Shown here: positions 17,503 to 17,755 of the stretch, one piece after another
Layout of the letters: the number at the start of each line of letters is the position of its first letter
Numbering within the stretch: position 1 is the stretch's first letter
NCBI RefSeq assembly: GCF_000026545.1
Contig: NC_011601.1
Direction: 5' to 3' (one strand)
Length of the DNA stretch: 64,000 bases
Origin: Escherichia coli O127:H6 str. E2348/69
Lineage (GTDB): Bacteria > Pseudomonadota > Gammaproteobacteria > Enterobacterales > Enterobacteriaceae
The notes under the pieces: generated by a model
Told to the model about the DNA's origin: nothing
Seen by the model: the letters and a program-made list of their open reading frames with translations, nothing else
Databases searched by the model: none
Made by a program: the position numbers and the translations under genes

Positions 17503-17755
17503 GAGGGGTCCATTTAACAGATTCAACCAGGGGCAAGTATGGTAAAGCATCCCCTGCCGCACAAGGAAGCGGTTGTCTGTTTTCAGTGCTCTGTTTCTCT
17601 CTAGTATCTTCTTTCAGTTCATATTTTTTCTTAAAGAATGTTGTAACTAAATTTACATCAGTTGTTTCACCAGCCATGGCATTGGATAATGAGCGTTCAA
17701 TCTGGCTACCAATCCCTGGCTGGAATAAATAAATGGACCTTAACCGGAGAGAGCA

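Follow-up and report, generated by a model that had tools for sequence, protein, structure and literature searches.

A sorbitol operon null allele, probably derived from Escherichia fergusonii, between mltB and gutQ of enteropathogenic Escherichia coli E2348/69

In Escherichia coli K-12 MG1655, UTI89, and the phylogroup B2 strain MCJCHV-1, the sorbitol genes srlA-srlE-srlB-srlD-gutM-srlR lie between mltB and gutQ, and in K-12 the stop codon of srlR overlaps the start of gutQ (ATGAGTGA). Among the GTDB species representatives, the operon occupies this site in the E. coli representative, E. whittamii, and two other Escherichia species, as well as in Salmonella, most Citrobacter, Klebsiella, and others. 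Within E. coli, 5397 of 5426 complete genomes match at least 80% of a whole-operon query at a single site. The O157:H7 lineage retains the srl operon at this site with inactivating mutations. As a pathogenic E. coli lineage partly defined by lost sorbitol fermentation, sorbitol-negative O157:H7 (PMC2806823) offers a parallel to the strain studied here, E2348/69, but differs from it in that the E2348/69 operon is physically absent, replaced by what is probably the allele of another species. Colonies of E. fergusonii are colorless on sorbitol MacConkey agar (PMC13062576), and the sorbitol reaction of E. albertii is variable, with sorbitol-positive and -negative biogroups (PMC9145129). The gene at the downstream end of the operon, gutQ, and its counterpart kdsD each specify an arabinose-5-phosphate isomerase that serves Kdo synthesis, and deletion of the two together is normally lethal (PMC4404585).

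We examined the locus in a 64,000-nucleotide window of the chromosome of E. coli O127:H6 str. E2348/69 (NC_011601.1), an enteropathogenic E. coli reference strain; all positions given without an accession are those of the window. A 2.4-kb query across the junction matches the E2348/69 record with 100% identity. An earlier note made from the sequence of this DNA had proposed that the srl/gut operon is absent relative to K-12, and both the RefSeq annotation and a whole-operon search of E2348/69 agree. None of the PTS permease genes (srlA, srlE, and srlB) is present, nor is the dehydrogenase gene srlD or either regulator. Copies elsewhere in the genome, which the earlier note had held would speak against its reading, did not appear, since the whole-operon query on the genome record matched just a 47-bp repeat. 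The genes on either side are complete. MltB spans 361 residues from an ATG at 17502 and matches NF008029 end to end with 747 bits in the NCBIfam comparison. The proposal that gutQ is kept and intact holds as well: residues 1–321 of its product align to profile positions 1–321 of the equivalog model NF008581 at 674.5 bits (cutoff, 481), whereas the score against the KdsD model, 348.8, falls below that model's cutoff of 505. The spacer between the two genes measures 253 bp and not the ≈190 bp first reported, a count that had used an upstream in-frame GTG at 17562 as the MltB start. RefSeq annotates no gene inside the spacer, and norR follows gutQ (Table 1).

Compared with the K-12 operon, the E2348/69 locus thus occupies the same site between mltB and norR, encodes a GutQ that differs at one residue, and retains both the same last 15 nt of srlR and the same gutQ ribosome-binding site (GGAGAGAG, 17746–17753, within the 15 nt upstream of gutQ). 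It differs in having none of the six upstream genes and neither regulator, so that gutQ stands alone behind the 253-bp spacer. Because mltB is divergent from gutQ, no read-through into gutQ is possible from upstream, and with the srlA promoter gone, gutQ is severed from its native upstream operon, as had been suggested. The gene content predicts, as the earlier note had reasonably concluded, that E2348/69 is without a dedicated sorbitol pathway and would neither take up nor oxidize sorbitol by the Srl route. Genetic work in K-12 established that the mannitol PTS takes up sorbitol at low affinity, and the strain therefore need not be strictly sorbitol-negative. That srl is absent can be seen in the public E2348/69 annotation; our literature search found nothing relevant on the sorbitol phenotype or srl status of the strain and no paper on the absence of srl from it, on the junction, or on its relation to E. 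fergusonii. As E2348/69 is a reference strain, the missing operon matters for metabolic models, for the use of sorbitol MacConkey agar, and for gut competition.

Table 1. Features of the mltB–gutQ interval of E. coli E2348/69 (window positions)
Feature	Coordinates	Strand	Description and basis
mltB (lytic murein transglycosylase B)	16417..17502	-	Intact, 361 aa; RefSeq annotation and NCBIfam NF008029
77-aa ORF	17444..17677	-	Judged spurious; begins in filler, enters mltB; hypothetical in some records
mltB-proximal block	17503..17577		75 bp, left flank of the replacement; common to srl+ genomes
Alternative candidate promoter	17514..17543	+	TTAACA, 18-nt spacer, TATGGT; in the conserved 75-bp block
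Filler (junction sequence)	17578..17740		163 bp in place of srlAEBD-gutM-srlR
Candidate sigma-70 promoter	17662..17690	+	-35 TTGTTT (17662-17667), 17-nt spacer, -10 GATAAT (17685-17690)
Filler right end, probable decayed srlR remnant (last ~50 nt)	17698..17740, approximate	+	Alignment, Smith-Waterman test
gutQ-proximal 15 nt	17741..17755	+	Identical to the srlR 3' end of srl+ genomes
gutQ (D-arabinose 5-phosphate isomerase)	17756..18721	+	Intact, 321 aa; RefSeq annotation and NCBIfam NF008581

Alignment to srl+ genomes delimits the junction precisely. Homology ends at 17577, 75 bp upstream of the mltB start codon, and restarts at 17741, 15 nt before the gutQ start and within the 3′ end of K-12 srlR, so that a K-12 segment of 4,146 bp (NC_000913.3, 2,825,652–2,829,797) is replaced by a filler that aligns to neither K-12 breakpoint region. 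The GC content of the filler is 36%, compared with 53–57% in its neighbors. The 75-bp block on its left is found in every genus that we compared across the Enterobacteriaceae by alignment and BLAST, whether srl is present or absent, and the E2348/69 copy carries four E. fergusonii-type SNPs, at 17554–17556 and 17574. The earlier note had foreseen that alignment to K-12 would yield the endpoints of a deletion. The operon is indeed absent, but a simple deletion does not describe the locus, because 163 unalignable base pairs stand between the flanks in place of the operon and the endpoints, far from being private to the lineage, are shared with E. fergusonii and E. albertii. On these alignments, the junction is a replacement and no clean deletion.

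The only relatives of the 77-aa ORF that begins in the filler come from this locus in E. coli and in E. fergusonii, where it is 54 aa long, and it gave no NCBIfam match. A codon-by-codon comparison by hand showed that its frame in E. albertii has mostly non-synonymous changes and an early stop. We judge from this pattern that the ORF is spurious.

To place the junction among other Escherichia, we compared it with the corresponding locus of E. fergusonii. All 24 of the contigs that we read for this species, which carry its common GutQ and include the type strain ATCC 35469, are srl-less and contain the filler. The E. fergusonii locus shares with E2348/69 the 253-bp spacer, the filler endpoints, and the SNPs at 17554–17574, and the fillers themselves are identical at 161 of 163 positions (98.8%). 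The surrounding genes are far less alike: E. fergusonii mltB and gutQ are species-typical, with ≈6% divergence overall and ≈20% at silent sites, whereas the flanks in E2348/69 are B2-type. Divergence between E2348/69 and E. fergusonii at four-fold degenerate sites is 19% for gutQ and 22% for mltB. The similarity of the fillers thus far exceeds the four-fold-site identity of their neighbors (78–81%), the relationship taken here as the mark of introgression.

Examination of the flanks resolves E2348/69 into three zones. Up to 17534, its sequence, mltB included, is 100% identical to that of the B2 strain MCJCHV-1; at 17554–17556, at 17574, and through the filler, it has the E. fergusonii state; and from 17820, it is B2-type again, matching the B2 strain UTI89 through the first ≈290 bp of gutQ. 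Beyond that point, gutQ remains B2-type save for scattered differences and a K-12-like patch at 18346–18482. The interval 17741–17819 is invariant in all of the sequences compared. Two other carriers, A25 (from a monkey) and DCE7 (from a pig), have 15 more consecutive E. fergusonii alleles between 17458 and 17534, reaching into the first mltB codons, and otherwise share the left-flank haplotype of E2348/69. The switch from putative donor to recipient sequence is therefore abrupt, falling at 17534/17554 in E2348/69 and at 17434/17458 in A25 and DCE7, and the sequence is recipient-type by 17820. The interval that would hold the left crossover in E2348/69 (17535–17553) offers 19 bp of identity, a short stretch for exchange by RecA that obliges us to assume heteroduplex repair or a second conversion event. 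We also considered a foreign right flank, because gutQ–norW is 3.5% divergent from MCJCHV-1, and rejected it: MCJCHV-1 is K-12-like there and hence a poor comparator, and the right flank of E2348/69 is ordinary B2 sequence with 98.5% identity to UTI89.

Within E. coli, the filler occurs in 12 of 5426 complete genome records (nine strains, with three of the records being E2348/69 itself), at this site alone. These amount to 0.2% of complete records, and all have B2-type flanks. The filler is 99.4–100% identical among carriers, which nonetheless fall into at least three local flank haplotypes with 97.6–98.1% identity to E2348/69 over 2.4 kb. All eight distinct carriers that we examined have T at both 17602 and 17654, whereas E. 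fergusonii has C at the two positions and E. albertii has C at 17654. The shared derived T residues indicate that the E. coli copies constitute one derived lineage of the E. fergusonii allele, a monophyly judged from the mltB–gutQ locus alone in a comparison that covered the locus and ≈20 kb of surroundings. The carriers also share an asc-less hydN junction that is common in B2. As a clade marker for srl-less strains this junction proved uninformative, being found in 721 genomes that include CFT073 and Nissle 1917.

The type strain of E. albertii is srl-less as well, with a 252-bp spacer and a homologous filler that has the same endpoints. Its filler matches that of E2348/69 at 133 of 164 positions (81%), with 81–82% identity to the E. 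coli and E. fergusonii fillers taken together, and is less AT-rich (44% GC). The fillers of E. albertii and E. fergusonii diverge by 18.3%, and the four-fold sites of the two species by 17% in gutQ and 29% in mltB. Because the divergence of the filler equals that of the flanking silent sites, the scar would be about as old as the split between these species or would have been exchanged between them long ago; this estimate assumes that the filler evolves at approximately the four-fold-site rate, and an early exchange between the two species would leave the same picture. An identical E. albertii GutQ protein is encoded beside the filler in most contigs and beside a complete srl operon in others. 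Gene by gene, the E. albertii operon shows 92–98% identity to its counterparts in E. coli and related Escherichia, the same as its flanks, and this equality indicates that it is native to the species and not imported. The presence of both states fits the variable sorbitol reaction of E. albertii.

Taking these data together, we consider it likely that the srl-null allele of E2348/69 came from E. fergusonii through one introgression into B2 E. coli that left gutQ on a promoter in the spacer. The null allele would have arisen long ago in Escherichia, a scar of ≈163 bp replacing srlAEBD-gutM-srlR, and its E. fergusonii version would have entered one phylogroup B2 chromosome once, by homologous recombination via the mltB and gutQ flanks. 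A single double crossover, with one exchange in mltB or the block upstream of it and the other in the 5′ region of gutQ, would have removed the resident 4.1-kb operon. Two point mutations would have followed the import, and recombination within E. coli would then have trimmed the E. fergusonii-type flanks to varying extents and spread the allele to several local haplotypes. Freed from the control that GutM, SrlR, and CRP exert on the srlA promoter, gutQ would be transcribed from the 253-bp spacer, and its retention would be explained by a backup role of GutQ alongside KdsD in Kdo/LPS synthesis. Gene loss through import of a deletion allele by way of flanking homology is a known kind of event, of which this locus is a well-resolved new example. 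If our reading is right, it offers a base-resolved case of gene loss by acquisition from another species, ordinary biology with an evolutionary twist that overturns nothing in current understanding.

Other histories fit these observations less well. A simple deletion of srl in place within the E2348/69 lineage, with the likeness to other species being coincidental or reflecting independent deletions, is scarcely credible even though srl has repeatedly been deleted from this site on independent occasions in other genera (Citrobacter, Enterobacter, Leclercia, Pseudocitrobacter, and Kluyvera). The 163-bp junction is no fusion of the two K-12 breakpoints, E. fergusonii and E. albertii share its endpoints to the base, and in E. 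coli it is bordered by SNPs of E. fergusonii type; the shared filler by itself already argues decisively against such an origin. Long-term inheritance within E. coli deserves more attention. Here, the null allele would be an ancestral E. coli polymorphism transmitted vertically since before the split from E. fergusonii, with flanks homogenized by within-species recombination. Were this so, the E. coli and E. fergusonii fillers ought to differ by the ≈20% expected of neutral sequence since speciation, and they differ at 2 of 163 positions; the 15 contiguous E. fergusonii-specific flank alleles in A25 and DCE7 and the restriction of the allele to 0.2% of complete records, all with B2-type flanks, are equally hard to accommodate. 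We therefore regard this history as very unlikely, despite the age of the allele in the genus, evident in fillers that differ by 18% between E. albertii and E. fergusonii, and despite the example of E. albertii, which keeps both states on near-identical flanks and so makes a long-lived polymorphism possible. Transfer in the reverse direction, from E. coli to E. fergusonii, or recent receipt by both from a third, unsampled Escherichia lineage, strikes us as highly improbable too. Near-identity alone gives no direction, and the scan of GTDB species representatives did not return E. fergusonii, leaving relatives incompletely sampled; an exact search of those representatives with a 22-mer of the filler (CCAGCCATGGCATTGGATAATG) gave no match, whereas the E. 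fergusonii type strain does contain it. In all E. fergusonii genomes that we read, however, the filler is continuous with species-typical sequence on both sides, whereas few E. coli carry it and the E. fergusonii-type alleles beside it there are confined to short islands. At 17654, moreover, E. fergusonii has the E. albertii state and E. coli the derived one. The direction of transfer into E. coli, as we favor it, is read from flanking SNP tracts of 4 to 19 sites.

A further alternative concerns the filler itself: a mobile element, or foreign DNA of another kind, could have produced the first deletion by inserting and then excising, and the filler would be what it left behind. The GC content of 36% against ≈55% in the flanks is in keeping with this idea, and most of the filler (≈120 nt, 17578–17697) has no significant similarity to the srl region. 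Yet we found no match to the filler in plasmid or phage collections or elsewhere in complete E. coli genomes, and no IS or phage remnant at the junction, the nearest IS copies being more than 5 kb off, beyond norW; protein-level matches were confined to the same locus. The right end, on the other hand, resembles decayed srlR. In E. albertii, the right 70 nt of the filler align collinearly with the last 120 nt of the species' own srlR, giving a Smith–Waterman score of 25 once the identical 18-nt block is left out. Dinucleotide shuffles scored 14.4 ± 2.4, and 1 of 500 did as well as the real sequence. The corresponding match in E2348/69 is weaker (19–22 of 500 shuffles). These alignments make a decayed srlR 3′ end the probable source of the rightmost ≈40 nt. 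For the left part, the best Smith–Waterman match is to the reverse complement of srlA −61..+12 (36 versus 28.2 ± 3.5), a score reached by 15–19 of 400 shuffles; 20–28% of all shuffles land on the same AT-rich spot, and nhmmer found no inverted srlA 5′ fragment in the filler. We treat an inverted srlA 5′ fragment as a weak lead that hints at scrambled srl sequence. The 44% GC of the E. albertii copy would fit AT-biased decay of nonfunctional DNA. On balance, an origin of the whole filler in foreign DNA appears unlikely, and for the ≈120 nt on its left, a scrambled srl fragment and unrelated inserted DNA are both possible sources.

Several more specific origins for the filler were tried and set aside. 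By eye, GCATTGGATAATGAGCG resembles GCATTATGATGAGCG, which would make the filler a decayed gutM 3′ end and srlR promoter region like those in srl-less alleles of other genera, but neither an nhmmer profile of the gutM 3′ end nor one of the srlR 3′ end scored the fillers any better than 2000 shuffles. The likeness of GGAGAGAACAATGA at srlA to GGAGAGAGCAATGA at gutQ and the nearly equal spacers (253 versus 255 bp) evoked a fusion of the srlA and gutQ ribosome-binding sites; the retained 15–18 nt are instead the srlR 3′ end. Nor is the spacer a diverged srlA promoter fused to gutQ, as the rest of it cannot be aligned to the srlA upstream region. Two reading frames are open across the filler, and a protein-gene fragment was rejected when the minus-frame peptide, compared with 5.8 billion proteins, recovered only this locus, from E. 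coli and from E. fergusonii. Rfam gave no match to the filler at E ≤ 1, and its fold z-scores of −1.25 (plus strand) and −2.07 (minus strand) are nothing notable.

The introgression that we favor for E. coli could be one episode of a longer history. The earlier note had raised the prospect that the short arrangement is ancestral in the lineage. This is borne out for the genus, in which the null allele is ancient, but not for E. coli, in which the allele appears to be a rare import (12 of 5426 records) bordered by E. fergusonii-type SNPs. Tentatively, and with somewhat less than even confidence, we suggest a trans-species presence/absence polymorphism in which one ancient srl-null allele has existed since about the origin of the genus and has moved between species by homologous recombination. 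If so, the allele would be fixed in E. fergusonii, segregating in E. albertii, where it possibly underlies the biogroups, and rare in E. coli. Repeated sorbitol-negative phenotypes in Escherichia would then trace to a single old event and not to independent losses, and selection would alternately favor the two srl states while gutQ expression was always kept. The 163-bp filler provides a marker that can be typed across Escherichia to ask whether sorbitol-negative biogroups share one ancient allele.

Outside Escherichia, mltB adjoins gutQ in 17 species representatives of other lineages, namely Citrobacter spp. R56, Awk 4, and NCU1 and several Enterobacter, Leclercia, Pseudocitrobacter, and Kluyvera, with endpoints that differ between genera. 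Like the Escherichia allele, these loci place mltB beside an intact gutQ and keep the conserved 75-bp block. Most of them differ from it in that stretches of the gutM 3′ end (GAATGCnCTATCAT), the srlR 3′ end, or both are still clearly recognizable, whereas the Escherichia filler has no significant similarity to gutM; the Leclercia adecarboxylata allele retains three separate remnants, and in the Pseudocitrobacter and Kluyvera alleles, no gutM or srlR 3′-end piece was detected. The srl-less loci of several genera indicate that loss of srl with retention of gutQ is recurrent in the family. Among these losses, the shared endpoints and filler mark the Escherichia allele as one specific event of common origin.

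Retention of gutQ bears on how the gene is expressed. Between E. fergusonii and E. albertii, GutQ differs at 10 of 321 residues, compared with 17% divergence at silent sites, which indicates long-term purifying selection in genomes where the spacer is the only possible promoter region. Because gutQ is under such selection in srl-less species, we infer, reasonably in line with the earlier note, that its promoter lies within the junction spacer (17503–17755). The gene, usually seen as the tail of the sorbitol operon, is conserved independently of it, consistent with a backup arabinose-5-phosphate isomerase role in LPS synthesis. Our best candidate promoter is TTGTTT-17-GATAAT, within the filler. 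It comes from a scan of our own, and its 8 of 12 consensus matches fall below the threshold of 9 of 12 used in the standard scan; its hexamers and spacing are identical in E. fergusonii and E. albertii. These hexamers sit in the two longest perfectly conserved blocks of the 81%-identical filler alignment, for which we estimate that ≈0.7 perfectly conserved 18-nt blocks would be expected by chance. The sole match in the standard scan is the alternative candidate TTAACA-18-TATGGT, at 9 of 12 with 0.6 expected by chance. Neither candidate is statistically compelling. Both candidates are conserved in all three species, and the alternative, which E. albertii shares, occurs in srl+ genomes as well.

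Beyond the strain itself, independent srl deletions in other genera have kept a short piece of sequence upstream of gutQ that carries the motif GAATGC(A/T)(C/T)TAT(C/G)AT. It is found in Citrobacter, Enterobacter, and Leclercia, as well as, by eye, in Kluyvera; the loci concerned, all from srl-less species of other genera with the motif in the spacer upstream of gutQ, are L023, L024, L039, L041, L043, L053, L057–L059, L061, L079, L089, and L090. BLAST identified the piece as the 3′ end of gutM (positions 6916–6960 of the K-12 locus, L003) only in Citrobacter R56, E. cloacae M-7, RIT714, Enterobacter kpr-6, and L. 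adecarboxylata. The position of the piece in these srl-less loci, ≈50 to 100 nt upstream of gutQ, suggests an internal srlR–gutQ promoter preserved by selection.

Within gutQ, ≈25 sites in the 3′ third of the gene set E2348/69 apart both from UTI89, an srl-positive phylogroup B2 strain, and from the remaining srl-less strains. Site-by-site comparison showed that at most of these sites, E2348/69 has the state of K-12 and of MCJCHV-1, a B2 strain that resembles K-12 from gutQ to norW. From these alignments, the segment is a putative short phylogroup-A-like recombination patch, and it accounts for E2348/69 GutQ being closer to K-12 (one amino acid difference) than to UTI89 (four). On the other side of the junction, comparison with loci L004–L009 revealed 15 differences in 77 bp around the mltB start between E. 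fergusonii and both E. coli and E. albertii, with E. albertii carrying the E. coli allele at the same 15 sites. This divergence of E. fergusonii from the other two species is unusual.

Coordinates of features in the E2348/69 window
Feature	Position	Location or extent	Basis
Divergent E. fergusonii stretch	17458–17534	first 45 nt of mltB and 32 nt upstream	site comparison
Putative recombination patch	18254–18482	3′ third of gutQ	site-by-site comparison
IS-fragment cluster	23173–27062	between norW and hypF	
asc-less junction	29541–33970	hydN to higB-like toxin pair	
ISEc13	30602–31975	hydN to higB-like toxin pair	
IS200C	32113–32571	hydN to higB-like toxin pair	
DUF4259 gene	32723–33151	hydN to higB-like toxin pair	
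mutS–rpoS intergenic region	~58500–62500	mutS to rpoS	converted from record annotation

Three further intervals of the window were noted. Besides one intact element, ISEc21, the ≈4-kb IS-fragment cluster contains an IS1397 pseudogene, IS3-family fragments, and a transposase fragment. UTI89, K-12, and E. fergusonii lack the cluster, but the srl-less monkey strain A25 carries it too. The hydN region lacks ascG–ascF–ascB, the arbutin/salicin/cellobiose PTS genes that come after hydN in UTI89, and an asc-less hydN–DUF4259 junction is common to 721 complete genomes, CFT073 and Nissle 1917 among them. The mutS–rpoS region, which is known to be polymorphic in E. coli, encodes a MarR-family regulator and a three-subunit non-oxidative hydroxyarylic acid decarboxylase.

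An exact 22-mer from the 163-bp sequence that replaces the srl operon had no match among the GTDB species representatives scanned, and E. fergusonii was absent from the gutQ loci returned there; the same 22-mer is present in the E. fergusonii type-strain genome (L109). The miss among the representatives is a gap of the collection or of the scan. A 7.7-kb contig (DXKH01000030.1) from a metagenome-assembled genome labeled Citrobacter sp. HRGM_Genome_0066 encodes a GutQ 100% identical to that of E2348/69, as well as GutM and SrlR 100% identical to those of K-12. The same genome has a second gutQ locus of Citrobacter type (L022), and the contig appears to be contaminating E. coli DNA in the bin.
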